A stretch of 64,000 nucleotides of DNA from Tepidiformaceae bacterium (GCA_963422605.2 CAXXUF010000002.1:1781848-1845847); one strand, 5' to 3'; shown: positions 2,811 through 59,390, counted from the first letter of the stretch. Numbers and translations: made by a program. Notes: generated by a model not told the origin, from the sequence alone.

Positions 2811-3892
2811 CGTGGCCTCCTCTGCGGGGCGCCACGCTGCTCGCTGCGGTTGCGCTCGCGGGCCGCCTGGCGCTCGCCGGAGTAGCGCGAGACGCTCGCG
2901 AGCACGCCCGCCGCCAGCAGCGTGGCGGCGAGCGCGCTGCCCCCGTAGCTGAGGAACGGCAGGGGCACGCCCGTGAGCGGGATCACGCGCGTGATGCCCC
3001 CGATGTTCACGAGCGCCTGGGTCGTGATCCAGGTCGTGACACCGGTCGCCAGCAGAAAACCGAACTGGTCGGGGGCGCGCTGCGCCACCTGGTAGCCCCG
3101 CAGCATGAGCGTGACGAACAGGAACAGCACAGAGGCGGTGGCGACGAGCCCGAGCTCTTCGCCCAGGATCGCGAAGATTCCATCGGTATGGCTCTCGGGC
3201 ACATAGAAGAACTTGCCGCGGCTCGCGCCCAGGCCCAACCCGGTGGCGCCCCCGTTGCCCAGGGCGATGAGCGACTGCAGCGTCTGGAACCCGCGCCCGA
3301 GCGGGTCGGATTCGGCGTTGAAGAAGGCGCCCAGGCGTTCCAGCCGGTAGCCCTCGATGAGTGCGAGCGAGACTGCGACGACCGTGCCCGATGCGAGCAG
3401 CGCCCCCATCTGCAGGAGCGTGGCGCCAGCCACCCAGAACATCGTGACCGTGATCGCGAGGATGATGGCAGTTGTGCCGAAGTCGGGTTGGAGCATGAGC
3501 AGGAGCCCAATCGCGCTGATGATCAGCACGAACGGCGCGAGGCCGTGCTCGAAGCTCCGCAGGCTGTCGCCGCGTGTGGTAAGCCAGGCCGCCAGGTAGA
3601 CGATGACGCTGAGCTTCGCGAACTCGGCGGGCTGGAAGCTCAGGCCCCCCACGTTCATCCAGCGCTGGGCGCCGCCCGCCTCCGCGCCCAGCACGAGGAC
3701 GCCCAGCAGGGCCAGCAGTGTGAGCCCCATGAGCGGCAGCGCCAGCCGCTGCAGAAGGTGGTAGTCGAGGCGCATCGCTGCCAGCAGCAGCACACCCCCG
3801 ATCAGCGCCCACATGCCCTGGCGCACGATGAAGTAGTGCGAGTCAGCGAACCGCGCCAGGCCGATCACGAAGCTGGCGCTGTACACGATCAC
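2807..3892 (-). CDS. ftsW: Peptidoglycan glycosyltransferase FtsW (SEDS family); minimal ORF, true start probably upstream near 3982
   Basis: Track ORF with GTG start at 3892 (VIVYSASFVIG...QPAEFAKL...). It is a polytopic SEDS protein. The same frame stays open upstream and encodes AVSRTRRWAVGGPDYTLLALISALTVIGL, which is the expected first TM, but that stretch has no ATG/GTG/TTG (see finding). Confidence 0.88.
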   Translation of the reverse strand: MIVYSASFVIGLARFADSHYFIVRQGMWALIGGVLLLAAMRLDYHLLQRLALPLMGLTLLALLGVLVLGAEAGGAQRWMNVGGLSFQPAEFAKLSVIVYLAAWLTTRGDSLRSFEHGLAPFVLIISAIGLLLMLQPDFGTTAIILAITVTMFWVAGATLLQMGALLASGTVVAVSLALIEGYRLERLGAFFNAESDPLGRGFQTLQSLIALGNGGATGLGLGASRGKFFYVPESHTDGIFAILGEELGLVATASVLFLFVTLMLRGYQVAQRAPDQFGFLLATGVTTWITTQALVNIGGITRVIPLTGVPLPFLSYGGSALAATLLAAGVLASVSRYSGERQAARERNRSEQRGAPQRRPR

Positions 3893-3978
3893 AAGACCTA
3901 TGACGGTGAGCGCGCTGATCAGCGCCAGCAGCGTGTAGTCGGGGCCTCCGACGGCCCAGCGGCGGGTTCGCGAGACTG

Positions 3979-5373
3979 CTATGACGGCGCCTCCTCGAAT
4001 CCCTCGAGCGCGGCGACGAGCGCGGCGAACGCCTCGCCGCGCGCCTCGAACCGCGGATAGGCGTCGAAGCTCGTGCCCGCGGGCGAAAGCAGGACGGCGT
4101 CGCCTTCCGCAGCGAGTCGGGCGGCGGCCGCCACCGCCTCCGCGAGCGTCTCTACGCGCGCGACCGTCTCAGCGGCGTTCGCCATCGCGTCCGCGAACGG
4201 CGCGGCCGCCTCGCCGAAACAGACGATCGCGCGGCAGCGCCCGGCGGTGGCGGTCCGCAGCGGTTCGAGGGGCAGTGCCTTCTCGCGCCCACCCAACAGC
4301 AGGATGGCAGGCTCGCTCACCGCTTCGAGCGCCGCGATCGTGCGCTCCGGCGAAGTGGCGATGCTGTCGTTGATCCAGGTCGCGCCGTACGCCCGCCCCA
4401 CAACCTGGAGCCGGTGGGGCAGGCCGCGGAAGCGCCGCAGGCCGCGCGCGATCGCCTCGATCGGGATGTCCAGTGCCCGCGCCACGGCGACCGCGAGCGT
4501 CGCGTTCGCGAGGTTGTGCCGTCCGCGCAGGGGCAGGTCGCTCTTGGCGGCCACGTGCTCGGCGGGGCCGCCCCAGCGGGACACGATCGCGTCCCCGGCC
4601 AGCCAGGCGCCGTCTGGGGCGACCGGCCCCGCCAGCGAGACCTCGGCGAGCCGCCCGCGCACGTCCGCGTAGAGCTCGCGGCTGATCTCGTCGTCCGCGT
4701 TCAGGATGGCGAGGTCGCCTTCGCCCTGGAAGCGCAACAGGTTGCGCTTGAGGTCGACGTACTCGGGCCAGCTGAACTGATCGAGATGGTTTGGGGTGAC
4801 GTTCGTCACCGCCGCGATCTCGGGCGAGTGCTCGGTGTACTGCAGTTGCGTGTGGCTGATTTCGAGGATGACGCTCGCCGCCGCCGGGGCCGCTTCGATG
4901 CGGTCGAGGAGCGACCCTCCGAGGTTTCCCCCGACGAGGTGGTCGATGGCGGCGGCTTCCGCCATCGCGCCCACCATCGCCGTCGTTGTCGACTTCCCGC
5001 TCGATCCCGTGATTCCGGCGATGCGCGCGGGGCAGAGGCGGAGGGCGAGCGCCATCTGTGAGAGTACGGGAATCCCGAGCGCCCGCGCCCGCGCCAGCGC
5101 CGGATGCGTGCGCAGCAGTGACTGTGAGACCGCGAGCAGGTCGAAACCGGCTGGGTCGGGCAGCTCGCCGGCGCCGGCGCGTTCGACGCCTTCGGGAGGG
5201 CGCGCCCCTGCTGCCTCCAGCTGCGCGTCGCTGCGGCTGTCCGCGATTGTCACGGAGGCGCCCCGTGCCAGCAGCCAGCGCGCAAGGTCGCGCCCTTCGA
5301 TGCCGAGCGAGTAGACGAGCGCGCGCGCCCCCGCGAACCGGGGGAGTGTGGCGGCTGGCTGTTCCATCGTCAT
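3979..5373 (-). CDS. murD: UDP-N-acetylmuramoylalanine--D-glutamate ligase MurD
   Basis: Track ORF 3979..5928 trimmed to ATG 5373 (MTMEQPAATLPRFAGARALVYSLGIEGRDLARWLLARGASVTIAD). P-loop GITGSSGKSTTTAM present. GTG 5379 would give a GTGA overlap with the mraY stop. Confidence 0.9.
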   Translation of the reverse strand: MTMEQPAATLPRFAGARALVYSLGIEGRDLARWLLARGASVTIADSRSDAQLEAAGARPPEGVERAGAGELPDPAGFDLLAVSQSLLRTHPALARARALGIPVLSQMALALRLCPARIAGITGSSGKSTTTAMVGAMAEAAAIDHLVGGNLGGSLLDRIEAAPAAASVILEISHTQLQYTEHSPEIAAVTNVTPNHLDQFSWPEYVDLKRNLLRFQGEGDLAILNADDEISRELYADVRGRLAEVSLAGPVAPDGAWLAGDAIVSRWGGPAEHVAAKSDLPLRGRHNLANATLAVAVARALDIPIEAIARGLRRFRGLPHRLQVVGRAYGATWINDSIATSPERTIAALEAVSEPAILLLGGREKALPLEPLRTATAGRCRAIVCFGEAAAPFADAMANAAETVARVETLAEAVAAAARLAAEGDAVLLSPAGTSFDAYPRFEARGEAFAALVAALEGFEEAPS

Positions 5374-6350: not shown

Positions 6351-7720
6351 GCCGCGTCCTCCAGCATGGGGATGAGCAGGTCGAACTCCTGGCCGCGCGA
6401 AGCCTTCACGAGGACGTGATCGCCCGCGCCGAGGAGGCTCGCCGCGAACGCCGCCGCCGCCTCCTTCGTCTCGAACCAGCGCCCCTCGCGCAGCCCGCCC
6501 GCGCGCGCCTCCTCGACCAGCGGCTGGCAGAGCGCGCCGGTCGCCGTGAGTGCATCGCAGCAGCCGGCTGCGAGACGCCCGATGCGGCGGTGCTCGAGCT
6601 CGGCCATCTCGCCGAGCTCGGCCATCTCGCCGAGCAGGGCGATTCGCCGGCCGCCCAACCCGCGGAGCAGCGTCAGCGCGCCCGCTACCGAGGCAGGGCT
6701 GGCGTTGTAGGTGTCGTCGAGGATCAGCGCGCCGCGCGCGCTGCGGCGCACGCGCAGGCGTCCCTCGATCTCGGCGGCGCTGACCGCTGCCGCCGCCTCC
6801 GCGAGCCCCACTCCCAGCGCCAGCTGGACGCCGATCGCGGCCAGCGCCGCCGGCGCCAGGTGCGCCCCTGCGAGGCGGAGCCGCACGGTCGCCGTCGCGC
6901 CCTCGTACGTCACCGGAAACTCCGTGCCGTCCAGGCCGAGGTCGCGCAGCGCCCTGCGGCGCAGGCATCCCGCAGTGCCCGTGCCGAAGCCGATGACGTC
7001 GCAGGCGAGCTCTTCCGCGACTGGGGCGATGCGCGCGTCGTCGAGGTTGAGGACGGCGGCGCCATCGCGCGGGAGGCCGCGGGCGAGCGAGAGCTTCTCA
7101 CGTGTGATCGCCTCCATGCTGCCGAGCTTTTCGAGGTGCGTGGCGCCGATGTTGAGGACAGCGCCGACGGAAGGTCTGGCGATGGCGCTCAGCTCCGCGA
7201 TCTCGCCTTCGCGGTCCATCGCCATCTCCAGCACGGAGACTTCGTGGTCGCGCCGCAGGCTCATCAGCGCGAGGGGCAGCCCCTCCCGTGAGTTCAGGTT
7301 CCCCGGGCTGTGGTGCGTGCGAAAGCGCGGCGTCAGGGCCGCGGCGGTCAGATCCTTGGCCGTCGTCTTGCCGACCGTGCCGGTGATGCCCACGACACGC
7401 GCATCGCAGGCGTTGCGCCAGTCGCGCGCGAGCTCGGCAAGGGCCGTGCGCGTGTCGACGGCTATGGCGAGCGTGCGATCCGGCCAGTCGCCCCGTGGGG
7501 GGCGCTCGCAGATGGCGGCGGGCGCGCCCCGTGCGAGCGCCTCGTCCACGAAATCGTTCCCATCGAGCCGCTCGCCCCGGAAGGCGGCAAAGAGATCGCC
7601 CGGCTGCGTCCGGCGCGAGTCAGCCGCGCCGCCCGTGATGGGTGCGGGCGCGCCCTCGATCACGTGGTGACCGTGCGCGCGCATGCTCGCCGCCAGGAAC
7701 GTCGTCGTCATGCCCGTCAT
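6347..7720 (-). CDS. murF: UDP-N-acetylmuramoyl-tripeptide--D-alanyl-D-alanine ligase MurF
   Basis: 457 aa. Contains DSRRTQPGDLFAAFRGERLDGNDF, P-loop GITGTVGKTTAKD, and the MurF-type DDTYNASPASV (not the MurE DNPR motif). ATGA overlap with the ftsI stop. Confidence 0.92.
   Translation of the reverse strand: MTGMTTTFLAASMRAHGHHVIEGAPAPITGGAADSRRTQPGDLFAAFRGERLDGNDFVDEALARGAPAAICERPPRGDWPDRTLAIAVDTRTALAELARDWRNACDARVVGITGTVGKTTAKDLTAAALTPRFRTHHSPGNLNSREGLPLALMSLRRDHEVSVLEMAMDREGEIAELSAIARPSVGAVLNIGATHLEKLGSMEAITREKLSLARGLPRDGAAVLNLDDARIAPVAEELACDVIGFGTGTAGCLRRRALRDLGLDGTEFPVTYEGATATVRLRLAGAHLAPAALAAIGVQLALGVGLAEAAAAVSAAEIEGRLRVRRSARGALILDDTYNASPASVAGALTLLRGLGGRRIALLGEMAELGEMAELEHRRIGRLAAGCCDALTATGALCQPLVEEARAGGLREGRWFETKEAAAAFAASLLGAGDHVLVKASRGQEFDLLIPMLEDAA
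6596..6631. repeat. Perfect 18-bp tandem duplication (GAGCTCGGCCATCTCGCC x2, plus a partial third GAGC) inside murF
   Basis: Read directly from the sequence: 6596-6613 equals 6614-6631. On the coding strand it yields LLGEMAELGEMAELEH, a duplicated EMAELG hexapeptide. Confidence 0.9.
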
Positions 7721-9444
7721 GGCGCCTTCACCTGTTGGTTGTCGGGGGGGACGTTGAGGTAGGCGAGGGCCTCTTCGGCGAGAGCGGCAAAGATGGGGGC
7801 CGCCGCTGCCGTGCCCGTGAGCAGGTCCTCGTTCTCATCGAGCTTCACGAGGATGAGGATGCGGGGCTTGTCGAGCGGGGCGAAGCCGGCGAACGAGACG
7901 ATCTGCGCTTCGGCGTAGCCGCTGTCGGTGGGGATGTTGGCGGTGCCGGACTTGCCGCCGGCTGTGTAGCTGTGGGGCTTCCCCGGGTGGTACCAGCCAG
8001 GGTCGACCACGTCGCCGAGCATCCGCCGGATGGTGGCGCTCGTCTCCGGCGAAATCGGCTGGCCCGTCACCTGCGTCTGCAGATCGAGCCGCGTGCCACC
8101 GGGCAGGATCAACGCCGCGACCAGGCGCGGCTGTACGAGCCGCCCGCCGTTGATGGCCGCAGCGAAGGCGCTCGCGATCTGGATGGGCGTGACGCTGATC
8201 GCCTGCCCGAACGATTGCGTGGCCAGATCGACAGGCGACCAGTCCGGATCGTGCGGCCGGCGCACGAGGCCCGCGGCCTCGCCGGTGAGGTCAACTCCGG
8301 TTGGCTTGCCGAAGCCGAAAGCGTCGAGGTAGTGCTGGAAGAGGTCCACGCCGAGCTTTTCCACCATGAACACGGCGCCGGTGTTGATGCTGTGCTGGAG
8401 CACACCCGTCATCGTCTGCTCGCCGTAGACGCCTTCGTTCCAGTTCTGGATGGGAATCCCGAAGACGGACACGATGCCGGTATCGAGGTACTCGGTTGCG
8501 GGCGTGACGAGACCGGAGTCGATCGCCGCCGCCGCGGTGATCACCTTCATGACCGAGCCGGGTTCGTAGATGTCGCTCACGGCGCGATTGCGCAGAAGAT
8601 TGACCTGTGCCGGGTCGCTGAGGTTGAGGGTGCTGAAGGCGAGATCGGGCTGCGTCGCGAGCGCCAGAATCTCGCCCGTCTGCGGGTCCATCATGATGAT
8701 GGAGCCGCCCGTCGCGCCGTGCTCCTCGATCGCCTCTGCCAGCGCGCGCTGGGCGGCCACCTGGAGCCTGCGGTCGACCGTGAGCACGATGTCGGGGCCG
8801 GGTACCGGCTTGGTGGTGAAGGTTTCGCCGTAGGGGATGGGCGAGCCGGTGGTGTCGCGTTCGAAGATCACGCGCCCGGGCGTGCCCCGCAACTCCTCGT
8901 CGTACCACGCCTCGATCCCCGTAAGGCCGGTGTTCTCCCGCCCCGTGATGCCGATGACCGAGACGGCGAGGTCGCCCGCGGGGTAGACGCGCTCGGTGTT
9001 CGGCAGGCCCACCAGGCCGGGCACGTCCGCATCCAGTAGGGCCTTGCCCGTCCGGTAAGGGACGTCGTGGGTGATGAGCACATCGGTGAGTTCGCTCGTC
9101 CGCACCTCCTCGCGCAGCTGGGCGGCGTCGAGGCCGGTGGCCTGCGCGATCGCCTCCGAGCCGGCTCGCGCGGACTCCACGTTGCGCCAGACACGGGAGG
9201 AGACGTAGAGGTCCCACGTGTCGGCGCTCAGCGCGAGGGGGAAGCCGTTGCGGTCGAGGATGGCTCCGCGACGGGCGAACACGGTGTCGCTCGCGTGCAG
9301 CGCGCTGCGTGCCTCCGCGGCGTAGCGGTCGTGCTCGATGACCTGTACGTATATGAGCCGCGTGAGCACCACCGCGGCGAACGCCCCAAGAGCGATCGCT
9401 GGCGGCCACACGCGCCGCGTGCGCGTAGCCTGCTGGTGTGCCAT
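7717..9444 (-). CDS. ftsI: Class B penicillin-binding protein / peptidoglycan D,D-transpeptidase FtsI
   Basis: 575 aa. N-terminal TM (PPAIALGAFAAVVLTRLIYV), a PBP dimerisation region, and transpeptidase motifs GSVMK (SxxK), HSINTG (SxN) and GKSGTA (K[ST]G). Sits in dcw context. Confidence 0.9.
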   Translation of the reverse strand: MAHQQATRTRRVWPPAIALGAFAAVVLTRLIYVQVIEHDRYAAEARSALHASDTVFARRGAILDRNGFPLALSADTWDLYVSSRVWRNVESARAGSEAIAQATGLDAAQLREEVRTSELTDVLITHDVPYRTGKALLDADVPGLVGLPNTERVYPAGDLAVSVIGITGRENTGLTGIEAWYDEELRGTPGRVIFERDTTGSPIPYGETFTTKPVPGPDIVLTVDRRLQVAAQRALAEAIEEHGATGGSIIMMDPQTGEILALATQPDLAFSTLNLSDPAQVNLLRNRAVSDIYEPGSVMKVITAAAAIDSGLVTPATEYLDTGIVSVFGIPIQNWNEGVYGEQTMTGVLQHSINTGAVFMVEKLGVDLFQHYLDAFGFGKPTGVDLTGEAAGLVRRPHDPDWSPVDLATQSFGQAISVTPIQIASAFAAAINGGRLVQPRLVAALILPGGTRLDLQTQVTGQPISPETSATIRRMLGDVVDPGWYHPGKPHSYTAGGKSGTANIPTDSGYAEAQIVSFAGFAPLDKPRILILVKLDENEDLLTGTAAAAPIFAALAEEALAYLNVPPDNQQVKAP

Positions 9445-43700: not shown

Positions 43701-44462
43701 CTAGCGGGCCGATACGCCCGAATCCACCATCAGGCTGTTTCCCACGATGTACCCCGCGCTCTCTTCGCTGAGGAGGAACGCGCACGCCTCGGCGATGTCG
43801 CGCGGGCCGCAGATCGCGCCCGTGGCCGTCTGCTGGCCCATGCGCTCGCGTGCTCCCTCCTCGGCCAGGATGTCCTCGGTCATGCCGCTCTCGACGAAGC
43901 CCGGGCAGATGGAGTTGACGCGGATGCCGTGCGGAAGCAACTCGATCGCCATCGAGCGGGAGAGCGCCGCCACCCCGCCCTTCGAGGCGGAGTAGGCGGC
44001 GAGGTTGGGCAGGCCCATCACCGCCGCCACCGAGGCGACGTTCACGATCGCGCCCTTGCGCCCGTCCGCCACCATCGCCTTCGCCACTGCCTGCCCGATG
44101 ACGAACGTGCCCGTCAGGTTCACCGCGATGACCTCGTGCCATGTCGCCAGATCGGTTTCGAGCGTGCCCGCGTAGCGCAGGATGGCGCCGCAATGGACGA
44201 GCCCGTCGATGCCGCCCCAGGCCGAGCGTACCTGCGCGACGAACCGCTCCACGGCCTCCGGGTCGGCTACGCTGACAGGCCCGGCGATGACCTCGTGGCC
44301 AGCCTCCAACAGCATGCGCTCTGTCTCCGCGAGGCCCGCCGCCGCCGGATCGAGGATGGCGATGCGCGCGCCGCGCTCCGCGAGCAGCTCTGCCACACCC
44401 CGCCCCATCCCCGAGGCCGCGCCTGTGACGATAATCGCCTTCCCCGCGAACGACGCGCTCAT
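43701..44462 (-). CDS. SDR-family oxidoreductase
   Basis: 253 aa, GKAIIVTGAASGMGRG (TGxxxGxG), NVAS...YSASKGG (YxxxK). Its ATG overlaps the stop of the GHKL ATPase gene (ATGA at 44459-44462). Confidence 0.9.
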   Translation of the reverse strand: MSASFAGKAIIVTGAASGMGRGVAELLAERGARIAILDPAAAGLAETERMLLEAGHEVIAGPVSVADPEAVERFVAQVRSAWGGIDGLVHCGAILRYAGTLETDLATWHEVIAVNLTGTFVIGQAVAKAMVADGRKGAIVNVASVAAVMGLPNLAAYSASKGGVAALSRSMAIELLPHGIRVNSICPGFVESGMTEDILAEEGARERMGQQTATGAICGPRDIAEACAFLLSEESAGYIVGNSLMVDSGVSAR

Positions 44463-46000
44463 TGCGTTGCCCTTCCCGCAGGAAGCGCGGGCCCCTTGTC
44501 CAGCCAGATGATCTGGTCAAACAGGTCACGAGCCTCCGCAACCGAGGCTGAATCCTCATCGACGAGATGTCTGACCAGTGATTCAAATACGTAGTCCTCA
44601 TTGCTCCCGAGGGATGTATAGAGGGGGTAATCCGTGTTCACGACGATGGAGCGTATCCCGTCGTCAGCGTCGCGCCACTGTGTTCGAGACGTTTGCGCTC
44701 CGAGCGCATCCAGGATGACTGGCGGGATCTCGCTAACCCGGCGAAGCAGCCGGCCAACTGGATCGTCTGGTGGGGGTGTCCGTTCCGTGATGGGGCGTCG
44801 CTTCCTCGTTGAAGACGCCTCTGTGCGAGTCGTCCCCTCCCGCTCTGGCCGTTTGCGTCCGCCCGGTCCGGTGCCCTCACCAGAGGGCTCCCGCCCGTTC
44901 TGGCTGTGGGGCAGATGTAGGCTCTGCAGCTTCCGAAAGGCCTCTTGCACGCGGCGGCGTGCGCTGTTTGCACGCTTCCGTTCCTCGCGAGAGGCTGGCC
45001 GTGACTCCGAGATACGACCGAGATGCGTGACGACGGGCTGCATGCGCTCGTGCATGAATTTCTCCAGTGCCGTCCACGCGTCGCTGTCTTGAGACCATCC
45101 GGTCTTCACCAGGTTTGGCTTTAGTCCGCGTCCCCGAATCTCGATCTCGCCGTAGACCCGCTGTAGGTTGCCCTTGCCGGAGAGCTTGTGTTCGAACTCT
45201 TCGCCGTCGGTGATCTTGCGTCCGTTGAACTCGGTTCGGACTCCAGCGGTGATGCGGCTGCCTCGTGCGTCGGGAACCCTGTCCCGGTCGATGGCGCCCA
45301 CCTGCCCGACCACCCGGACGCCCGGAAAAACCTCGATTCGGGGAATCTTCACGATATCGATTGAGGATGACCACGGAATGGCGCGCGTGGCGACTGCCTT
45401 GCCGTTGACCTGGATTGTGCACTCGTCCCTCTCGATGAGGGAGCGATAGGTATCCGCCAGCCGCCCGGACAGAATCCCGACCTCGTAGCGATTCTTCCTC
45501 AGCCCGCTGAGGGTAACTTTCGTGAAGCCAGTCCCTGGCGGCGGGGCTTGGTGGGGCCAGCGCAACGCAGATTGTGGTAGATTAGTGATAGGCGACGAAT
45601 CCAGAGCCTCCTCCCGACTGCCCCAACAGGGATCGTGAAACCGCCAGATTTCTTCTTCACCGGACTTGCGGCACACGATCTCCAGCCCCTCGGCCAGATA
45701 GATTGCTGCGGACTTGCCGCCGATGTGGTACTGACCGATGTCACCGGCGGCGTGTTGCGGGCCTTCGCCCCAGAGAATCCAATCCTGCAAGCCCTGGTCG
45801 TTCATACCCTCGCCACCCTCGTCAGTGATGGTGACGCGGTCGTGCTTCTTGTCGATCGTGATCGAGATGGTCAGACGCCGCCCGCGACGTTTATCGAACG
45901 GGTTATCGATCAGCTCCATCAGCGCCTCGGCGACGGATTTGTAGTTGTTTGCCACCGCCAGCATCGCGCTACGCCCGAAGCTCTCGGTGATCGCGGTCAC
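44459..46000 (-). CDS. GHKL-superfamily (MORC / HATPase_c_3-like) ATPase with a disordered basic linker and an unknown C-terminal domain
   Basis: 513 aa. Bergerat-fold motifs: N box EALMELIDNPFD, G1 box ITDEGGEGM (DxGxG), G2 IGQYHIGGKSAAIYL. After these come a beta-rich middle region, an ~90-aa R/K/E/P-rich linker (RPASREERKRANSARRR...RKRRPITERTPPPDD), and a ~90-aa globular tail. AT-richer than the flanks: 58% GC by hand count at 45601-45660. Confidence 0.85.
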   Translation of the reverse strand: MTAITESFGRSAMLAVANNYKSVAEALMELIDNPFDKRRGRRLTISITIDKKHDRVTITDEGGEGMNDQGLQDWILWGEGPQHAAGDIGQYHIGGKSAAIYLAEGLEIVCRKSGEEEIWRFHDPCWGSREEALDSSPITNLPQSALRWPHQAPPPGTGFTKVTLSGLRKNRYEVGILSGRLADTYRSLIERDECTIQVNGKAVATRAIPWSSSIDIVKIPRIEVFPGVRVVGQVGAIDRDRVPDARGSRITAGVRTEFNGRKITDGEEFEHKLSGKGNLQRVYGEIEIRGRGLKPNLVKTGWSQDSDAWTALEKFMHERMQPVVTHLGRISESRPASREERKRANSARRRVQEAFRKLQSLHLPHSQNGREPSGEGTGPGGRKRPEREGTTRTEASSTRKRRPITERTPPPDDPVGRLLRRVSEIPPVILDALGAQTSRTQWRDADDGIRSIVVNTDYPLYTSLGSNEDYVFESLVRHLVDEDSASVAEARDLFDQIIWLDKGPALPAGRATQ

Positions 46001-46461
46001 TGGGTTGCCTCCTTCAATGCGTAGGTTCCCCGTGCGACCCGCTCGAGGCGCGGGTCGTTGAAGTATCGGGAAAGCAGTGTGTTTGCGGGGTCTTTTCCTC
46101 CTACAGCCAAGCCACGCTGCGCAAGCGCCTGGTAGAGCTGGCGGTAGTGTGTTGGTTGGCCAATCTCCGCCAGGTAGTCCACAACGAGGTCTGCGTCCGC
46201 TACACGCCGGGATTTGGATGCCGATGCGGGCGCGGCAAAACCCGGGTCAGGCGCTTCCTCGTCGTCCTCGATAGGAAGCACCCCTTGAAGCCCTTGCAGG
46301 TGGCCTACTGCCTCTGCTACGCGATTGCGCTTTCGCTGAAGGGCGGCCAGCTCTGCGTCGAGCTCTCGCAGATTCGCTTCAAGGCGACTGAGCTCCTGCC
46401 TGGCCTGCGCCTGGAATTCACTGGCAAAGCTGGGTTGGGGGTCTGTGTCAGTGCGCTGCAT
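45997..46461 (-). CDS. Coiled-coil protein with C-terminal HARE-HTH-like winged helix
   Basis: 154 aa. Strong SD (AGGAGGGA, 6 nt before ATG 46461). Coiled coil ELSRLEANLRELDAELAALQRKRNRVAEAV, acidic linker IEDDEEAPDPG. The C-terminus ADLVVDYLAEIGQPTHYRQLYQALAQRGLAVGGKDPANTLLSRYFNDPRLERVARGTYALKE fits the HARE-HTH pattern ending in rG.Y.L. ATGA overlap with the GHKL gene. Confidence 0.8.
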   Translation of the reverse strand: MQRTDTDPQPSFASEFQAQARQELSRLEANLRELDAELAALQRKRNRVAEAVGHLQGLQGVLPIEDDEEAPDPGFAAPASASKSRRVADADLVVDYLAEIGQPTHYRQLYQALAQRGLAVGGKDPANTLLSRYFNDPRLERVARGTYALKEATQ

Positions 46462-46582
46462 TGGCGATCCCTCCTACACGTGACTGGCGAGGAGGGGGGC
46501 TCCAGAGGAGGAAAGCATTCAGGAGCACTCCCCTTCCCGCCTGTGCAATAATGGGAGATGCCCATGAATTGGCCAAGTGGGT

Positions 46583-46608
46583 GGGGAGAACAATTGGGGA
46601 GAACAATT
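46583..46608. repeat. Perfect 13-bp tandem repeat GGGGAGAACAATT x2, each junction forming a CAATTG palindrome
   Basis: Read directly: 46583-46595 equals 46596-46608. It lies in the 168-bp spacer upstream of the HARE-HTH/GHKL operon, next to a TTGGCCAA palindrome (46569-46576). Confidence 0.9.
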
Positions 46609-46629
46609 GGCTTGCCAGCCTGCCGCTGG

Positions 46630-47805
46630 CTAGACGAAACCCCACTGGGGGAGGGGCGGCGTGCCGCTCATCTCCATGTGGCCGATGCCCTCACGGCCGT
46701 TGTAGCGGCAGCGGACGGCGTGCTCACCGTCCCAGAGCTGGGGTGCGAAATCCTTGTAGTTCGCGAAGTCGCTCAGGTCGTACTTGTCGTACTCCTCGTG
46801 CCAGTCGCCCTGCCAGCCGCCGAGGAAGCGGGGCTGGCCGTAGCCCTCACCGCGGATGTGGCGGGTGGCGTTTGGCTTGAGAATCTCGAACTCGAGCGCG
46901 TACTCCTCGCCGTACTCGTCGATGAGCGTGATCTGTGCCGCCTGGAACTTCTTCGTGTTCGGCTGGGTGGCGATATCGATGTCGGTGAAGTCGACGATGC
47001 GGATCTGCTCGCGGGCATCGTCGATGGGCCAGGTGACGGCGCCGTCGAAGTGGCCGCCGCGGTTATCGGCGAGGGTGCCGCCGAGGCGGGGCTTGCCCAG
47101 GAACTCGTCCATCCACCACCAGAAACCGATGTCGTCGAACTGGATGTGGCTGTGCCAGTGGATGCGCCCGCCGCCACGGGGCGAGACGCCCGTCCCGCCC
47201 GGCATGGGCCCCACCCATCCCTGCCAGCGCTCGCCGCCGAGGCTCGCCCAGCAGCGGTCGCGCTGGCCCCAGGTGTTCTCATGGTTCACCTCATACGTCT
47301 GGCCGTCGACGTTCAGCTCGCCCGTCCAGCGCCCCATGATCTCGAAGTAGGGGAGCACGCCGGGGAGGCTCGGGGATCCCGCGAAGGCGATCGGCGTGCG
47401 CGTTTGCACGGGCTGCAGCCAGGTGTCCATGGTGAGGTCGTAGCTGACACCCCAGGGGTTGTCCGCCGCGAGCGTGAAGCGCGCCGTGCGCAGCGGGTCG
47501 ATAACCTCCATGGTGGCTGGGCCGACGCGCTGGTTGACGCGCGCCGAGCGGTAGCCGTCCGGCTGGATCGTGCTCGAATAGCGCAGGTTGTACTGCGTGT
47601 CGCCGTGAACGATGATCTGGCCGTTCTCGATGATCCCGCTGTTGGGCCAGACTGGCCAGTTGGCACCCACGATCCAGCGCCCCTCCACGTCCATGCACTG
47701 GAACCAGTGTTGATCGACGAAGCGCGGGTCCGAATCGCGGATCGCGTCCACGGGGCTGGGTGTCTGGTGGTAGAAATGCTCGTCGAGCTCGGTCAGCATC
47801 GTCAT
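46630..47805 (-). CDS. Conserved hypothetical protein (paralog B of a tandem pair)
   Basis: 391 aa, MTMLTELDEHFYHQTPSPVDAIRDSDPRFVDQHWFQ.... Coding-like composition, Trp-rich. Shares N-terminal LD(D/E)xxxHQ...P(R)(F/W)VDxxWF and overall layout with the gene upstream. Confidence 0.75.
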   Translation of the reverse strand: MTMLTELDEHFYHQTPSPVDAIRDSDPRFVDQHWFQCMDVEGRWIVGANWPVWPNSGIIENGQIIVHGDTQYNLRYSSTIQPDGYRSARVNQRVGPATMEVIDPLRTARFTLAADNPWGVSYDLTMDTWLQPVQTRTPIAFAGSPSLPGVLPYFEIMGRWTGELNVDGQTYEVNHENTWGQRDRCWASLGGERWQGWVGPMPGGTGVSPRGGGRIHWHSHIQFDDIGFWWWMDEFLGKPRLGGTLADNRGGHFDGAVTWPIDDAREQIRIVDFTDIDIATQPNTKKFQAAQITLIDEYGEEYALEFEILKPNATRHIRGEGYGQPRFLGGWQGDWHEEYDKYDLSDFANYKDFAPQLWDGEHAVRCRYNGREGIGHMEMSGTPPLPQWGFV

Positions 47806-47818
47806 CGCTCTCTCCTCG

Positions 47819-48928
47819 CTAGATGCTCAGGCGGACCACGCCGTAGCTGGTCAGCTCGCCCATTGTGACCTCGCAGAAGTGCTCGATCGCGAATGGATTG
47901 ATGTGGCCGGAGTCGTTGTCGAGCAGGCGCGCGCGAGTCGCCGCGTCGGTGGTGTCGTGCGTCTCCATCTGGCTGACGCCGTCCTTGTACTCGATGTGGC
48001 GGAAGTCGGGGTGGCCGTAGCCGAGCCCTTTGGCGTAGATGGTACTGAGCGGTTTCAGTGTGAGATCGTGGACACCGCCATCCCAGTCGTGGACCTCGAC
48101 CGTGCCGCCCCTGAGCCGCTTGCCGTCGCTCTCGAACGTGAGGGAAGGCACGGCGCTGGTGAACCGGACCGGCTCTCCATCGCCGTGCGGGCCGGCTCCA
48201 CAGCCGTCGAAGCGGGTGCGCCCGGTGTCGTCGTTGAGTGCGCCGGCCGCGCCGGAGTGGGCTCCATCCGCCTCGATGCGCCAGAACCACCAGGAGAATC
48301 CTGTGGTGAGCGCTGCCAGCCAGAGGGAATGGCTCCCGATCGAGCTCGGCGGGCGGCCCAGGTGGGGAACCTGCCCGAACACGGGCCGCACGCCCCACGA
48401 GCGTTCGCGGGCGCCCACCGTCCCCTCCACCGCGATCGTCTCGCCCTCGACCGTGACGCTGCCGCTCGCCGTGCCCGTCTGTGCGTACTGGTAGAGGTCC
48501 CAGATCAGCTGGCGGCCGTCGCGCCGGTGCTGGACCGGTCCCGCGACCTCCATCGGCTGGTTGGGTAAGGCGAATTCGAGGTCGAAGCTGATTGCCTGGC
48601 CATCCGCAGGCTCCAGCCGGAAGCGCCAGGCGCGGAACGGGTCGAGGATGTCGGCGCTGATGCCGCCGACCTCGCGACGGTCGCGGTCGCCTGCCACACG
48701 CCGCCCGAAGCGCACATCATACTGCTTGCCCCCGTGCGCGACGCTGACGGCGGCGTCCATCGTGGCGGTGGCGGGATACACGCCCATGTGGCCCGCCACG
48801 CTGAGGGAGCCATCGGTCGCGCCGGTGTGGAACCAGAGCTCATCGACCCAGCGCGGGTTGCGCCCCTCGACCTGCTCCATGTTCTCGACGATCTGGTGGA
48901 TGGCGTAGTCGTCAAGTTTCGTTGCCAC
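47819..48928 (-). CDS. Conserved hypothetical protein (paralog A of a tandem pair)
   Basis: Track ORF 47819..48952. GTG 48928 has a GAAGGGG SD 5 nt upstream and aligns with its paralog (MATKLDDYAIHQIVENMEQVEGRNPRWVDELWFH...). An internal ARERSWGVRP motif recalls AttH/CrtC-like hydratase-fold proteins, but this is a weak call. Confidence 0.75.
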   Translation of the reverse strand: MATKLDDYAIHQIVENMEQVEGRNPRWVDELWFHTGATDGSLSVAGHMGVYPATATMDAAVSVAHGGKQYDVRFGRRVAGDRDRREVGGISADILDPFRAWRFRLEPADGQAISFDLEFALPNQPMEVAGPVQHRRDGRQLIWDLYQYAQTGTASGSVTVEGETIAVEGTVGARERSWGVRPVFGQVPHLGRPPSSIGSHSLWLAALTTGFSWWFWRIEADGAHSGAAGALNDDTGRTRFDGCGAGPHGDGEPVRFTSAVPSLTFESDGKRLRGGTVEVHDWDGGVHDLTLKPLSTIYAKGLGYGHPDFRHIEYKDGVSQMETHDTTDAATRARLLDNDSGHINPFAIEHFCEVTMGELTSYGVVRLSI

Positions 48929-49084
48929 GGTCACCCCTTCGTCGCGGTGCACGCACGCTGGCGCGCCCGACCGCGAAGCCCCGCGAATCTAGCCGAGTGG
49001 CGGGTGCGTTTCAATTCGCCCTCGGGCGTCGGCGAGCATCACTTCGCCGGCTACTGGCGGATCCTGTAGTGCGGGACGCTCGTG

Positions 49085-55773: not shown

Positions 55774-56567
55774 GGAGCTCCCCCGGCGGGCGCGAAGCCG
55801 TGGTGCGCGAGGATGGCGGCGCTTGCGTGCGAGGTGGCGAAGGCGAGGAAGGCGCGTGCGGACGCGCGCTTGCTGAGGAGCGCGATACGGTAGCCGGCGG
55901 GCGCCTGGAAGCGCGCGGGGATGGCCACCGCGCGCACGCCGGGGCGCATCGCGCCCGCGAGATCGCTCGCGTAGACGATGGCGGCGTCAGCCTCGCCGAG
56001 TTCGACCTTTGCGAGGGCAGCGCGCACGCTCGGCTCGTTGCTGCGGACGTTCGCGAGCACGCGCGCAGCGAAGTCCGGGGCGAGGGTGCCCGCCGTGTCC
56101 GCGAGCGCGAGCGCCCGGCGTGCGTAGCGGCCCGCGGGCACGGTCTCGGCGGCGAGCACGAGGCGCAGGCCGGGCTCAGCGAGGTCCGCGAAGGTGGCGA
56201 CTCTCTCCCCGCCTTGCCTCGCCGCTGCCACCACGAGCGTGTTCTCCGCGAGCGCTCGCTGCTCGACGACGAGACCGGCGGCGGCGAGCGCCTCGACTTC
56301 GTCGGGACTCGCGCTCGCGAACACGTCGGCGGGGGCGCCTTCGAGCGCCTGTGTGCGGAGTGTCGCCGAGCCGGCGAAGGCGAGGCGGACCATCACGCCC
56401 GGATGCGTCGCCTCGAATGCCTCCGCCAGCTCTCCGAAGGCGTCCGTGAGCGAAGCCGCCGCCAGCACCGTGATGGTCTCGCGGCGCTCCCCGCCCCCTC
56501 CCTCCCTCCCCCCGCCGCACGCCCCTGTCGCGAGGACGGCGAGCGCGAGCCAGACGGCGATGCCCAT
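55770..56567 (-). CDS. modA: Molybdate ABC transporter substrate-binding lipoprotein ModA
   Basis: Track ORF 55770..56924 trimmed to ATG 56567 (MGIAVWLALAVLATGACGGG, a lipobox). Contains ITVLAAASLTDAFGELAEAF, LAFAGSATL and AAIVYASD. Confidence 0.88.
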   Translation of the reverse strand: MGIAVWLALAVLATGACGGGREGGGGERRETITVLAAASLTDAFGELAEAFEATHPGVMVRLAFAGSATLRTQALEGAPADVFASASPDEVEALAAAGLVVEQRALAENTLVVAAARQGGERVATFADLAEPGLRLVLAAETVPAGRYARRALALADTAGTLAPDFAARVLANVRSNEPSVRAALAKVELGEADAAIVYASDLAGAMRPGVRAVAIPARFQAPAGYRIALLSKRASARAFLAFATSHASAAILAHHGFAPAGGAP

Positions 56568-56721
56568 GCGAAGGCTCACGCTGGGGCGGCAGGCGAGGGC
56601 AGCGTTGCGAGATGGCTCCGCAGCCAGTCGAGAGTGGCGTCCGCGGCGGAGAGCTTCGAGTGCGCGACGAGGCACGCAGCGCCCCCCCTTGCGCTGGCGA
56701 CCGACCGTGCGGCGGTCTGCC

Positions 56722-57528
56722 TCAGCTCGCGAAAGCCGCGCGCATGGCTTCGAGGCGGGCCTCCACGCCCTCGCGCGTGTCCTCGTGCGTGACGATGTAG
56801 AGCGCGTTCTCACGGATGGCGTCGAGCACGCGGCCCGCGACCTCCTCTGGCGGCATGCCCGCCGCAATCCCCTGGCGGATGGGCTCGGCGTGATCGGGCA
56901 CGTCCTCAGGGCCGCCGTGCGCATCCGGTCGGTTCCGTCCCGCCTCCACGATGCGTGTCGCCACTCCGCCCGGGCAGAGCACGGAGACGCCGATGCCGAG
57001 CGACGCGAGATCCGCGCGCAGGTGCTCGGACATGCCCACGACGGCCTGCTTCGAGGCCACGTAGGAGGCCATGCCCGGCGGTGCGAAAAGACCCGCGCTC
57101 GAAGCCGTGTTCACGATGTGCGCCTCGCCCCCCTGCTCGATCATGCGCGGGAGGAACTGCGTTACACCGTTCACCACGCCGCCCAGGTTCACCGACATCA
57201 CCCAGTCCCAGTCGGCGTCGCTCATCTCGCCGGCGGGGCCGAAGGTCACCACGCCCGCGTTATTGCAGAGTGTGTGCACGCCTCCGAAGGCGGCGAACGC
57301 CTCGTCCGCGAGGGCCTTCACGGAGGCGCGGTCGGCGACATCAGTGCGGATGGCGATCGCGCTGCCACCCCCCGCACTGATCGCCTTCGCTACGCCCTCG
57401 GCCGCATCGCGGTCGATATCCGAGACCACGACCGCCATGCCCTCCGCCGCAAAGGCACGGCAGAGTGCCTCGCCGATGCCGCTGCCGCCGCCCGTCACGA
57501 CCGCCGTCTTGCCAGCTCCCAGTTCCAT
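56722..57528 (-). CDS. SDR-family oxidoreductase
   Basis: 268 aa, GKTAVVTGGGSGIGEA, NNAG, NTASSAG...YVASKQA. Confidence 0.9.
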   Translation of the reverse strand: MELGAGKTAVVTGGGSGIGEALCRAFAAEGMAVVVSDIDRDAAEGVAKAISAGGGSAIAIRTDVADRASVKALADEAFAAFGGVHTLCNNAGVVTFGPAGEMSDADWDWVMSVNLGGVVNGVTQFLPRMIEQGGEAHIVNTASSAGLFAPPGMASYVASKQAVVGMSEHLRADLASLGIGVSVLCPGGVATRIVEAGRNRPDAHGGPEDVPDHAEPIRQGIAAGMPPEEVAGRVLDAIRENALYIVTHEDTREGVEARLEAMRAAFAS

Positions 57529-57627
57529 CGTCGCCTCCCGCGAACGCGCATCTTACCGGTTTGGGGCGCGGGGGAGGGGATCCCTGTGTCGCTGTCGTCT
57601 AGGCTCGAACCCGCCGTGAGGTGTACC

Positions 57628-58299
57628 GTGTCCTCTGCAGGAAGGAGTCTGATCGCGCTGGTTCCCGTGGAACCGAAGCTCTATCACATCGTCCACGTCG
57701 ATCGGCTGCCCTCGATCATTGATGCGGATCAGCTTTGGTGCGATGCAGAGATGGCGAAACGCAGCGGGGTCGGAACCAGCATCGGGATGAGCAAGATCAA
57801 ACAGCGGCGTCTCGAAGAGCTGACTCTCAGCAGCCATCCCGATATCCACGTTGGAGAGTGCGTTCCCTTCTACTTCTACCCACGCTCCGTCATGCTCTAC
57901 GTAATCCACAAGCATAACGACTCTGAGTTGGCCTACCGTGGCGGCCAAGGTCCCATCATCCACATGGAAACAGATCTGCGTCGGGTGGCCGCTTGGGCGG
58001 ATGAGCACAAACGACGCTGGGCCTTCACGACATCCAACGCCGGGTCGTATCACTTCGAGGACTACTCGGATATTGGGCAACTGGATAAGCTCAACTGGGA
58101 CGCGATACAGGCTCGCGACTGGAGGGGCGAGCGAAAGGAGGGCAAGCAGGCTGAGTTCCTGATGGAGCGCTCGTTCTCGTGGAATCTGGTTGAGCGCATC
58201 GGTGTCCTGTCCGCTGAAATCCGAAATCAGGCGCTGGGGACGGTCCACGCAGCCGTGCATCGTCCGCCTGTCGAGGTCAGGCGAGACTGGTACTATTAA
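57628..58299 (+). CDS. darT: DarT ssDNA thymidine ADP-ribosyltransferase toxin (DUF4433)
   Basis: Last ~223 aa of shadow ORF 56194..58299. Contains PKLYHIVHVDRLPSII, ECVPFYFYPRSVMLYV, NWDAIQARDW, the catalytic-type KQAEFLMERSFSW, and C-terminal RRDWYY. Start is uncertain: GTG 57616, 57628 or 57667, or CTG 57658, which lies 10 nt after a GGAAGGAG SD. Confidence 0.9.
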   Translation: MSSAGRSLIALVPVEPKLYHIVHVDRLPSIIDADQLWCDAEMAKRSGVGTSIGMSKIKQRRLEELTLSSHPDIHVGECVPFYFYPRSVMLYVIHKHNDSELAYRGGQGPIIHMETDLRRVAAWADEHKRRWAFTTSNAGSYHFEDYSDIGQLDKLNWDAIQARDWRGERKEGKQAEFLMERSFSWNLVERIGVLSAEIRNQALGTVHAAVHRPPVEVRRDWYY

Positions 58300-58311
58300 C
58301 TGGTACTATTA
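58286..58311. repeat. Perfect 13-bp tandem duplication ACTGGTACTATTA x2 spanning the darT stop codon
   Basis: Read directly: 58286-58298 equals 58299-58311. Copy 1 carries TGG TAC TAT TAA (the darT end). Copy 2 fills most of the darT-darG spacer. Confidence 0.9.
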
Positions 58312-58322
58312 GCTGAAGGCAC

Positions 58323-59390
58323 ATGATCGAACATAAGACCGGTGACCTGTTCAACGAGGATGTGGAGGCTGTCGTCAACAGTGTCAACTGTGTTGGTGTC
58401 ATGGGGCGCGGGATTGCGCTCCAGTTCAAGAACACCTTCCCCGAGAACTTCAAAGCGTACGCGACCGCCTGCAAGCGTGGGGAGGTTGCGCCTGGGCGGA
58501 TGTTCGTGTTCGAGACGGGTCGGCTGACGAACCCACGCTACATTATCAACTTCCCGACAAAGCGTCATTGGCGGGGCAAGAGCCGGATGGGGGACATCGA
58601 AGCTGGCCTTGAAGCGTTGGCGCGGGAGATTACAGAACGGAACATCCGCTCGATCGCGCTCCCGCCGCTCGGAAGCGATCTGGGTGGCCTGCGGTGGGCT
58701 GAGGTGCGCCCGCGCATCGAAGCGGTGCTGGAGGGCATCGATGATCTGAAGGCCGTTGTGTTCGGACCCGGCAGCGCACCGACCGATGGTCGACCCAACC
58801 GTTCGACCGGCGCGCCGAAGATGACGCTAGCGCGGGTGGCACTGGTCAGTCTGATCGACCGCTACCTCAAGGGCCTGCTCGATCCATCGATAACGCTTCT
58901 GGAAGTTCACAAGCTCATGTACTTCCTGCAGACTGCGGGTGAGCCTCTGAGATTGAACTTCCAGAAGGAGTACTACGGTCCGTATGCGGAGAACCTGCGG
59001 CACGTTCTGAAGAAGGTTGAAGGGCATTACATTTCAGGCTATGCCGATGGGGGGGATGCGCCTGGCAAGGAGATCGAACTCGTTCCGGGTACCGTCAGGG
59101 ATGCGGATGACTGGCTTGCTGATCATCCAGAGACGAAGGGGCGGTTGGACCGTGTGGGTGCGCTCGTTGATGGATTCGAGTCGTCGTTCGGCTTGGAGCT
59201 GCTGACGACAGTCCACTGGATCGCTGCAAGGTATCCATCCGCGACCGAGGAAGAGATCGTTGGGCGTATCTACGATTGGGGCCCGCAAAAGCGGCAATTC
59301 TCACAGCGTCAGATACGCTTGGCGCTTCAGGTGCTTCGGGAGAAGGGCTGGCTGGACTCCGACGGTGGCTCTCCGGCACACGCGGGGTAG
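58323..59390 (+). CDS. darG: DarG macrodomain antitoxin (DNA ADP-ribosyl glycohydrolase) with C-terminal DarG-type domain
   Basis: 355 aa, MIEHKTGDLFNEDVEAVVNSVNCVGVMGRGIALQFKNTFPENF...IINFPTKRHWRGKS...IALPPLGSDLGGL (TARG1-like macrodomain), then about 200 aa of helical domain. GAAGG SD before the ATG. Confidence 0.92.
   Translation: MIEHKTGDLFNEDVEAVVNSVNCVGVMGRGIALQFKNTFPENFKAYATACKRGEVAPGRMFVFETGRLTNPRYIINFPTKRHWRGKSRMGDIEAGLEALAREITERNIRSIALPPLGSDLGGLRWAEVRPRIEAVLEGIDDLKAVVFGPGSAPTDGRPNRSTGAPKMTLARVALVSLIDRYLKGLLDPSITLLEVHKLMYFLQTAGEPLRLNFQKEYYGPYAENLRHVLKKVEGHYISGYADGGDAPGKEIELVPGTVRDADDWLADHPETKGRLDRVGALVDGFESSFGLELLTTVHWIAARYPSATEEEIVGRIYDWGPQKRQFSQRQIRLALQVLREKGWLDSDGGSPAHAG

Follow-up and report, generated by a model that had tools for sequence, protein, structure and literature searches.

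A horizontally acquired two-gene cassette encoding a MORC-type GHKL ATPase and a coiled-coil/HARE-HTH protein in an uncultured Chloroflexota genome

The cassette and its two proteins

The window analysed here is a stretch of 64,000 nucleotides from the genome of an uncultured member of the Chloroflexota (Tepidiformaceae bacterium, GCA_963422605.2). Within it a 2.17-kb patch at positions 44459-46629, which we term the cassette, contains two genes on the minus strand (Table 1). The first of these, gene 1, encodes a small partner protein that appears to consist of a coiled coil and a HARE-HTH winged helix, and the second, gene 2, encodes a MORC-type GHKL ATPase. A preliminary description of this DNA had picked out the pair as a candidate defence or DNA-sensing module. 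The two genes overlap at 45997-46000, as was stated there, but the four shared letters are GTGA and not ATGA, comprising the GTG start of the ATPase gene (46000-45998) and the TGA stop of the partner gene (45999-45997). Together with an internal Shine-Dalgarno sequence (SD; GAAGGAGG), the overlap is read as translational coupling of the small gene and the ATPase. The small gene is itself preceded by a strong SD (AGGAGGGA, 46475-46468), and at the far end of the cassette the stop codon of the ATPase gene overlaps the start of the adjoining SDR gene as ATGA (44459-44462). Both of these had been described, and both can be read in the sequence.

The cassette stands out by its base composition. Its GC content is 61.8%, compared with a window mean of 69.1% (the standard deviation of sliding 2171-bp windows is 2.7%), and 1.4% of windows of this size are as low; the AT-richer patch of ~2.2 kb reported between metabolic genes is therefore real, and is the second-lowest in the window after that of the DarTG genes discussed below. 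The GC content at third codon positions (GC3) is 0.72 in the ATPase gene and 0.88-0.92 in neighbouring genes. Upstream of the small gene a putative promoter-like element is suggested by alignment with two syntenic loci, which have TTGACA-17-TATATT (L003) and TTGACA-17-TAGGAT (L006) at this place; L-numbers denote loci from genome and metagenome scans. A scan of the cassette region for consensus promoters and terminators returned nothing, the element scoring under the cutoff of the scanner. Directly upstream of it lies a perfect tandem duplication of 13 nt (TGGGGAGAACAAT) that is absent from both L003 and L006. It is possibly an operator, or else a recent duplication or slippage product.

Gene 2 is a genuine MORC-type ATPase with GHKL and S5 domains, on the basis of its architecture and catalytic features. 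The Pfam family HATPase_c_3 matches it with 32.9 bits (threshold 25), and the three Bergerat-fold motifs on which a MORC-like GHKL identity had been proposed are invariant. Across 54 homologues the invariant residues are E29, N33, D36, G62, G63, G65, M66, G94, G95, K96, G158, G253, R261 and K299. Motif II carries a one-residue insertion (D-E-G-G-E-G-M) relative to DxGxG. In a profile search with 22 homologues the best solved relatives are MORC4 (7k7t, E 4.6e-9) and MORC3 (5ix1, 6o1e), with E values of 5e-9 to 2e-8. The match comprises two stretches, the Bergerat domain and an S5 segment (GIRTEFNGR...LKPN..K), of which the second covers profile positions 194-307 and ends at the conserved lysine (K299). 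The MORC family is characterised by an S5-fold domain that comes after the GHKL domain and provides a conserved basic residue, and by the motif GhXhhpXXRhl (PMC2292703). The corresponding segment of the window ATPase, G253-V-R-T-E-F-N-G-R261-K-I, has the glycine and arginine at the MORC spacing and is aligned to GIMMYH.NRLI of MORC, with the inner hydrophobic positions unmatched.

An AlphaFold2 model of the ATPase (pLDDT 86.1) is built from a GHKL domain, a beta-rich middle domain, two helices, a linker and a compact C-terminal domain. It matches the folds of TRAP1/Hsp90, MORC2/3/4 and SMCHD1, all at ~E 1e-14, and the TM score to MORC2/3/4 is ~0.5-0.58 when normalised to the target. The two long helices are read as a helical hairpin, and the second (338-362) is strongly basic, with 9 K/R per 25 residues. 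The region after the middle domain had been described as a basic, disordered linker of ~90 aa; its basic character stands, but it is really this helix followed by ~50 disordered residues (363-413). The C-terminal domain, predicted alone, is globular as expected (pLDDT 80), with R439, N455 and P459 invariant and Y470 and E473 near-invariant. Compared with the PDB its model gave no significant fold match, the best being a non-significant match to the C-terminal dimerisation domain of HtpG. A sub-threshold match of the ATPase to DUF7016 (E 0.049) was dropped, as just one of the 22 family members matches. When the ATPase model was compared with viral folds (BFVD), the matches were of a generic GHKL kind (Hsp90, topoisomerase II, RIIA), apart from an unnamed protein of 494 aa. 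The latter (A0A481VXV4) is the best viral structural match, above the generic ones (E 9e-18, 17% identity, TM ~0.5).

From its sequence gene 1 is assigned as encoding a protein with a coiled coil and a HARE-HTH domain. The HARE-HTH model (PF05066) gives the window copy 18.9 bits, below the threshold of 25.9, and so the domain proposed in the preliminary description would not have been called on this copy alone; the assignment is made because 20 of the 21 family members match the model, the best with E 5.4e-15. A core of GGKDPANTLL..YFND.RL.R..RGTY is near-invariant in the family. The coiled coil is the less secure half of that description, giving weak matches to coiled-coil families over the N-terminal ~45 residues. 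It has been proposed that HARE-HTH domains discriminate modified DNA (PMC10853773). We found no description of a coiled-coil/HARE-HTH and MORC pair, or of the ATPase's C-terminal domain, in the searchable literature.

Table 1. Features of the cassette, with positions counted from the first nucleotide of the window; residue numbers refer to the protein concerned
Feature	Position	Strand	Remarks
Small partner gene (gene 1)	45997..46461	-	154 aa, ATG start
MORC-type GHKL ATPase gene (gene 2)	44459..46000	-	513 aa, GTG start
SD of small gene, AGGAGGGA	46468..46475	-	6 nt 5' of ATG
Internal SD for ATPase gene, GAAGGAGG	46008..46015	-	within 3' end of gene 1, 5' of GTG
ATGA, ATPase stop overlapping SDR start	44459..44462	-	right-hand junction of insertion
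Promoter-like element, TTGGCC-17 nt-CATTAT	46548..46576	-	putative, from alignment with L003 and L006
Tandem duplication, TGGGGAGAACAAT x2	46582..46607		perfect, 13 nt; directly upstream of promoter-like element
Bergerat-fold ATP-binding domain	45491..46000	-	residues ~1-170
ATPase motif I			E29/N33/D36
ATPase motif II			D60-E-G62-G63-E-G65-M66
ATPase motif III			G89-Q-Y-H-I-G94-G95-K96
ATPase motif IV			around G158
S5-like transducer domain	45086..45433	-	residues ~190-305; G253-x7-R261 and invariant K299
Two long helices	44915..45082	-	residues 307-331 and 338-362
Disordered linker	44762..44914	-	residues 363-413; Pro/Gly/Arg/Lys-rich; pLDDT <50 over most
C-terminal alpha/beta domain	44495..44761	-	residues ~414-502
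Partner, coiled-coil-like helix			residues ~15-60
Partner, acidic/Pro linker			residues ~63-88
Partner, HARE-HTH winged helix			residues ~89-152

Insertion, mobility and selection

The patch is a horizontally acquired cassette, placed in the short spacer between two resident metabolic genes. Its flanks comprise genes for an SDR, a glyoxalase, a cupin, an FAD-binding protein, a crotonase and two uncharacterised paralogues of 391 and 377 aa. A scan of metagenomes with the flanking 391-aa protein returned four related contigs (L075-L078). Two of these (L075 and L076) are empty, with the 391-aa gene, 28-31 nt and the SDR gene in succession and no cassette between; their flanks are 78-87% identical to those of the window. 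L077 has a different insert of 1.3 kb at the same site (7165-8501), and in L078 the SDR gene is absent too. The site behaves as a variable hotspot. No target-site duplication, terminal repeats or other repeats were seen at the junctions of the insertion, no integrase or transposase was found in Pfam look-ups of the neighbouring genes, and the IMG/VR viral contigs, INPHARED phages and PLSDB plasmids yielded no relatives.

The history of the cassette differs from that of its flanks. In the syntenic loci L003 and L006 the flanking proteins are 75-88% identical to those of the window, compared with 59-63% for the ATPase and 57-58% for the partner; the ATPase of the non-syntenic L002 is equally close (62%). 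Against L006 the synonymous divergence (dS) is 1.45-1.83 for the cassette and 0.49-0.80 for the flanks, a ~3-fold difference to which depression of the flank dS by strong GC3 bias, or weaker codon bias in the cassette, may contribute. The non-synonymous divergence (dN) is 0.29-0.37 and 0.08-0.14, respectively. Thus the cassette alleles predate the split of their hosts, or were exchanged between lineages. In nearly all close loci that were called, the ATPase gene has a GC3 0.15-0.35 lower than its neighbours. The empty sites, the depressed GC3 and the raised dS together uphold the idea of a foreign island. The ratio dN/dS against L006 amounts to 0.16 (ATPase) and 0.26 (partner), similar to the 0.11-0.25 of the flanks, indicating that both genes are under purifying selection.

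Two further observations concern the site itself. The cargo of L077 consists of a 91-aa open reading frame (ORF; 7407-7682, plus strand) and an opposite-strand ORF of 215 aa (7820-8467), of which the second seems to have a hydrophobic, membrane-like segment at its N-terminus, besides a coiled-coil-like region; neither matched Pfam or PADLOC. The 391-aa and 377-aa genes next to the cassette (46630-47805 and 47819-48952, both on the minus strand) are adjacent paralogues with ~26% identity. Their sole annotation is a faint DUF7064, in L066, and they keep synteny with the crotonase gene across Tepidiformaceae-like genomes.

The family, its partners and its neighbourhoods

How widely distributed is the ATPase? 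A word-indexed search gave 62 relatives, and an exhaustive profile search gave 2758, 586 and 141 clusters (50% identity) at E <1e-3, <1e-10 and <1e-30, respectively; most clusters among the matches listed are proteins of ~500 aa that match over their full length. A scan of 185,579 species genomes found 65 loci, which form three groups. The close clade (37-63% identity, ~23 loci) is confined to metagenome-assembled genomes (MAGs) of Dehalococcoidia or other Chloroflexota. The intermediate clade (26-33%) comes mostly from MAGs of Dormibacterota and soil Chloroflexi, and the distant clade (23-25%) from Solirubrobacterales. The breadth of the family bears on whether the cassette might be a decaying and functionless remnant of a larger MORC system of restriction-modification (RM) type. 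Every effector of the classical MORC operons is indeed lacking (PMC2292703). Yet with a dN/dS of 0.16, catalytic residues that are invariant over 54 sequences and the 141 clusters of the strictest profile search, decay is hardly credible.

Partner genes were counted over 24 close loci, that is, the close clade plus the window. A coiled-coil/HARE-HTH gene stands directly upstream of the ATPase gene in eight of the 24 (the window, L003, L005, L006, L007, L011, L014 and L015), and seven further partner homologues come from contigs equal in length to those of ATPase homologues, which are probably the same contigs. Elsewhere the upstream position is taken by other genes. In L016, L017 and L022 it is occupied by an unrelated 79-aa protein, whose gene has a 4-nt overlap with that of the ATPase, and in L020 and L023 the same protein precedes ATPase ORFs that look truncated or split. 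The gene just upstream encodes DndB in L009 and an uncharacterised 163-aa protein in L012. At least five close loci have the ATPase without any partner (L001, L002, L004, L018 and L021), which shows that the adaptor is dispensable. In two further cases, the ATPase homologue P0054 and L019, the ATPase carries a HARE-HTH domain as a C-terminal fusion, with no coiled coil; the fused domain of P0054 matches at E 1.8e-12, and an extra HARE-HTH gene in L019 at E 5.6e-19. The linkage of ATPase and HARE-HTH partner is real, and since a natural fusion exists, a physical and functional connection between them is likely from these sequences. The HARE-HTH adaptor is nevertheless exchangeable as well as dispensable, and the pair is not an obligate unit. 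Thus the conservation of the two genes as a pair holds in part, the ATPase also occurring alone, with the 79-aa protein or with DndB.

This pattern speaks against a toxin-antitoxin (TA) relationship, in which the ATPase would be a toxin set free upon infection and the small HTH protein an antitoxin that regulates its own expression, as in an abortive-infection module. The layout of the locus does fit a type II TA pair, in that the small HTH gene lies upstream, overlaps the ATPase gene by 4 nt and has a promoter-like element of its own; one partner homologue weakly matches AbiEi_4, and distant relatives of the ATPase stand beside Doc/Fic and PIN TA pairs. However, obligate co-occurrence of the kind seen in type II systems is absent. 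The ATPase is intact where it has no partner, in at least five loci, and where it is fused to HARE-HTH, in P0054 and L019, and neither arrangement fits a toxin in need of neutralisation. Moreover, its catalytic machinery is that of a conformational ATPase, and we know of no GHKL toxin. We consider such a module very unlikely.

The 79-aa protein is not a shortened form of the coiled-coil/HARE-HTH protein; this was rejected with an hhalign probability of 0.1. Its family precedes a HATPase_c_3 gene within a type III RM operon in L072 and L073 (N6_N4 methylase and ResIII/RE_endonuc), an arrangement that matches the classical association of MORC with RM. The gene order in L072 (4821-10039) and L073 is a 72-aa protein, HATPase_c_3 (582 aa), a 288-aa uncharacterised protein, N6_N4 methylase and ResIII/RE_endonuc. 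The GHKL protein of the L072 operon was rejected as a member of the same full-length family, its alignment being limited to the Bergerat domain. In L068-L071 a 74-aa protein is followed by a 781-aa protein without a Pfam match. Proteins of this 72-79-aa family are thus found immediately upstream of GHKL-type genes in unrelated contexts, and to our knowledge no such family of small GHKL partners has been described. Large proteins can occupy the same position. In a low-GC Gammaproteobacteria MAG (L046, 6483-11479) a relative of the ATPase is preceded by proteins of 526 and 616 aa, with N-termini that look coiled-coil-like by eye and, in the second, a weak winged-helix match (Trans_reg_C); they may be an enlarged version of the adaptor theme. 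Members of the ATPase family that appear split or truncated, into two or three ORFs, are found in L013, L020, L021, L023 and L059. A dispensable gene may be turning into a pseudogene here, or the long-read MAG assemblies may contain indel errors.

The heritage of the wider family is one of conflict systems; the clade of the window is not visibly embedded in known defence islands. In the Dormibacterota-type clade the ATPase is often near Doc/Fic and PIN TA pairs. In the Solirubrobacterales clade an N6_N4 DNA methylase of opposite orientation adjoins it in L062, L064 and L065, a methylase is present in L063 too, and an AIPR-family protein is encoded upstream in L061, L062, L064 and L065. L064 has in addition a RelA_SpoT-like gene of 215 aa, and its ATPase matches the PADLOC models MzaB (7e-11) and, weakly, TmtA (1.7e-4). 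Around the window cassette, by contrast, Pfam look-ups over ~10 kb found no nuclease, methylase or helicase, as had been reported, and no nuclease or methylase lies within ~10 kb of the ATPase in the window or the close loci. The defence system noted previously lies ~11 kb away, where DarT and a Macro domain protein (DarG) are found at ~57.7-59.4 kb. The DarT domain (PF14487, E 4e-59) forms the C-terminal end of an over-long ORF (56194-58296, plus strand), and the DarG-like Macro-domain gene (58323-59387, plus strand) is 3' of it; DarTG spans 57682-59387. This patch (57.6-59.8 kb) is the lowest-GC 2.17-kb stretch of the window, at 60.4%, with GC3 of 0.72-0.75. Two genes that read as UvrA and a MutY-like glycosylase enclose the cassette in L005 and L007. 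L005 also contains an SLFN_AlbA_2 gene of low GC3 (3194-4351, minus strand; GC3 0.52) at a distance of 5.6 kb from the cassette, which matches a candidate defence model of PADLOC (PDC-S50, E 4e-75).

The ordinary surroundings of the cassette raise the question of whether it might be a domesticated chromosome or transcription factor, in which the ATPase would regulate host genes, either by compaction or remodelling of the nucleoid or by an action on RNA polymerase that is mediated by a delta-subunit-like HARE-HTH protein. The delta subunit of RNA polymerase carries a HARE-HTH domain, and eukaryotic MORC proteins are described as chromatin compactors and silencers. The cassette has housekeeping neighbours and its own conserved promoter-like element, and is kept at the same site in three related genomes. 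Against this, the close clade is rare and patchy (~23 loci in 185,579 species genomes), the cassette is present or absent among equally related genomes and has a persistently foreign composition, its partners are swappable or absent, and there are apparently broken copies (L013, L020, L021, L023 and L059), which are possibly assembly errors. These are properties typical of accessory conflict genes and not of core regulators, and we regard domestication as quite unlikely.

Relation to known systems and a possible mechanism

Among the closest systems in the literature are the prokaryotic MORC and paraMORC proteins (PMC2292703). Like the window ATPase these have GHKL and S5 domains with intact motifs, G-x7-R and the conserved lysine; like its family they are patchily distributed and laterally transferred, and the distant relatives, together with the GHKL proteins that have a 79-aa partner, occur in RM/AIPR operons. 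Prokaryotic MORCs are documented as RM-associated, in patterns with SFII helicases, nucleases and methylases, one of which is a neighbour in ~70% of cases (PMC2292703). The clade of the window differs in having no SFII helicase, nuclease or methylase nearby, within ~10 kb in the window or close loci. It differs too in that the window ATPase has its own small C-terminal domain and basic linker, and in pairing with the HARE-HTH adaptor, the 79-aa protein, DndB or nothing. These comparisons bear on a further explanation, in which the MORC ATPase, with or without its adaptor, serves a nuclease or methylase encoded elsewhere, in the manner of MutL with MutH or Vsr, and the cassette by itself restricts nothing. 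The usual associates of prokaryotic MORCs and paraMORCs are SFII helicases, nucleases and methylases, and for paraMORC3 genes that stand alone cooperation with unlinked RM systems has been considered possible (PMC2292703); distant relatives of the ATPase adjoin a methylase and AIPR, and the family of the 79-aa partner is found in the type III RM operon. On the other hand the cassette moves as a unit of one or two genes into unrelated sites, which favours autonomy, and the absence of any nuclease or methylase within the same ~10 kb points the same way. A distributed system of this kind is in our view unlikely.

Among proteins of solved structure, eukaryotic MORC2/3/4 (5ix1, 6o1e, 7k7t and 9cdj) come out best in the comparison by sequence profile and near the top in that by fold. 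They resemble the window ATPase in having no nuclease, and in that a helical element bearing basic residues adjoins the ATPase module; the coiled-coil insertion of MORC2 binds DNA. Unlike them the window ATPase lacks a CW zinc finger, a chromodomain and long coiled coils at the C-terminus, the identity is 15-17%, and the targeting module of the window system would be a separate protein, the HARE-HTH partner. The type I-D Shedu protein VcSduA (a paraMORC3; PMC12137116) also has an N-terminal GHKL ATPase and a clamp-like middle domain, and is a validated single-gene defence system in which the GHKL domain gates an antiviral nuclease. That nuclease is a C-terminal DUF4263 domain of the PD-(D/E)xK type needed for defence, whereas the window ATPase's C-terminal domain is ~90 aa and has no nuclease motif. 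A search for the Shedu nuclease domain gave no Pfam match beyond HATPase_c_3 and the sub-threshold DUF7016, and no C-terminal fold match.

GHKL domains are also found in Mza (MzaB) and Tiamat (TmtA), and the distant relative in L064 matches both models, but the window ATPase and its close relatives match neither at E up to 1, and the multi-gene context of Mza is absent. MutL and Hsp90/HtpG share with the window ATPase an ATP-gated GHKL domain and transducer, a flexible linker and a C-terminal domain. In the window protein, unlike these, the linker comes after the middle domain, and a far smaller domain forms the C-terminus. The profile search of solved structures, taken to E 1, brought up no MutL chain. 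The HtpG equivalog of NCBIfam gave 11.2 bits with a cutoff of 371, and the likeness to HtpG/Hsp90 is structural only. Membership of Shedu I-D, Mza, Tiamat, MutL and HtpG was tested in each case, and the ATPase belongs to none of them.

We tentatively favour the view, to which we give close to an even chance, that the cassette is a nuclease-free conflict or defence module derived from the MORC ATPases of RM operons. The points linking it to conflict are DndB in L009, the family of the 79-aa protein in the RM operon, the methylases and AIPR beside distant relatives, the MzaB match of the L064 ATPase, and the documented RM association of prokaryotic MORCs; judged from these sequences, a defence function is plausible. 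How might such a module act? The coiled coil of the partner would dimerise it or dock it on the ATPase, and the winged helix of the HARE-HTH domain would bind DNA. The adaptor, perhaps as a dimer, would recognise a target DNA, most likely one that is invading or differently modified, and load the ATPase dimer upon it. The layout of the ATPase, with an N-terminal module thought of as dimerising under ATP control, a basic hairpin, a flexible basic linker and a small C-terminal domain, parallels that of the MutL, Hsp90 and MORC clamps, and on this account we propose a dimer held together constitutively by the C-terminal domain, with an N-terminal gate that closes around or along the DNA when ATP is bound. 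DNA clamped or compacted in this way might no longer be replicated or transcribed, and hydrolysis involving E29 and K299 would reset the clamp. Since no nuclease is present, entrapment or compaction of the invading DNA is the simplest output. Human MORC2 is described as a DNA compaction machine (PMC12216690).

A number of findings weigh against a defence module, beyond the caveat on dS and the loci that have the ATPase but no partner. Neither cassette protein matched PADLOC-DB v2 at E up to 1, and NCBIfam and PHROGs gave nothing significant for either; the preliminary description was thus right that the pair resembles no named defence system. Clustering with known defence genes is not visible in the close clade, whose neighbours are overwhelmingly metabolic or housekeeping. 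Among 148 of them PADLOC gave a single convincing defence-type match, DndB in L009, as a raw count. Matches to mad3, mad8 and REase_II were also obtained, and their candidate attribution, from sequence, is to UvrA, a MutY-like glycosylase and similar housekeeping genes of L005 and L007. Classical RM and AIPR contexts are found only with relatives of 23-25% identity, and with other GHKL proteins that have the 79-aa partner, and no effector is visible around the cassette. Dimerisation by the C-terminal domain is suggested by analogy and by the non-significant resemblance to HtpG. Lastly, HARE-HTH domains can bind proteins instead of DNA, as in the delta subunit of RNA polymerase.

A more far-reaching interpretation is that the clade constitutes a self-sufficient, nuclease-free immune or silencing module, in which interchangeable adaptors (HARE-HTH, DndB or the 79-aa protein) would place a MORC clamp on foreign DNA, and the clamp would neutralise that DNA by ATP-dependent entrapment or compaction without cleavage. 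It would then be the prokaryotic counterpart, and possibly the precursor, of transposon silencing by eukaryotic MORC proteins. Taken as a whole we hold this to be doubtful. The swappable adaptors do point to modular targeting of a GHKL clamp, and published work connects both HARE-HTH and DndB with DNA-modification systems.

Eukaryotic MORC ATPases compact DNA and thereby silence transposons and viruses. What is known of their bacterial ancestors, as accessories of RM operons, comes from inference only, and none of them has been studied biochemically in the searchable literature. In the cassette everything has been stripped away except an ATPase and a targeting adaptor. The domain themes will be familiar to comparative genomicists, but a minimal, nuclease-free MORC module with swappable adaptors would be a useful experimental entry point. 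Should the cassette not be protective, it would be another uncharacterised accessory gene set of uncultured Chloroflexota. If it is protective, this would show that a MORC clamp can act against invading DNA without a nuclease, and the cassette would provide a minimal and tractable model for the way in which MORC proteins are loaded and act on DNA, with a bearing on the origin of MORC silencing in eukaryotes.

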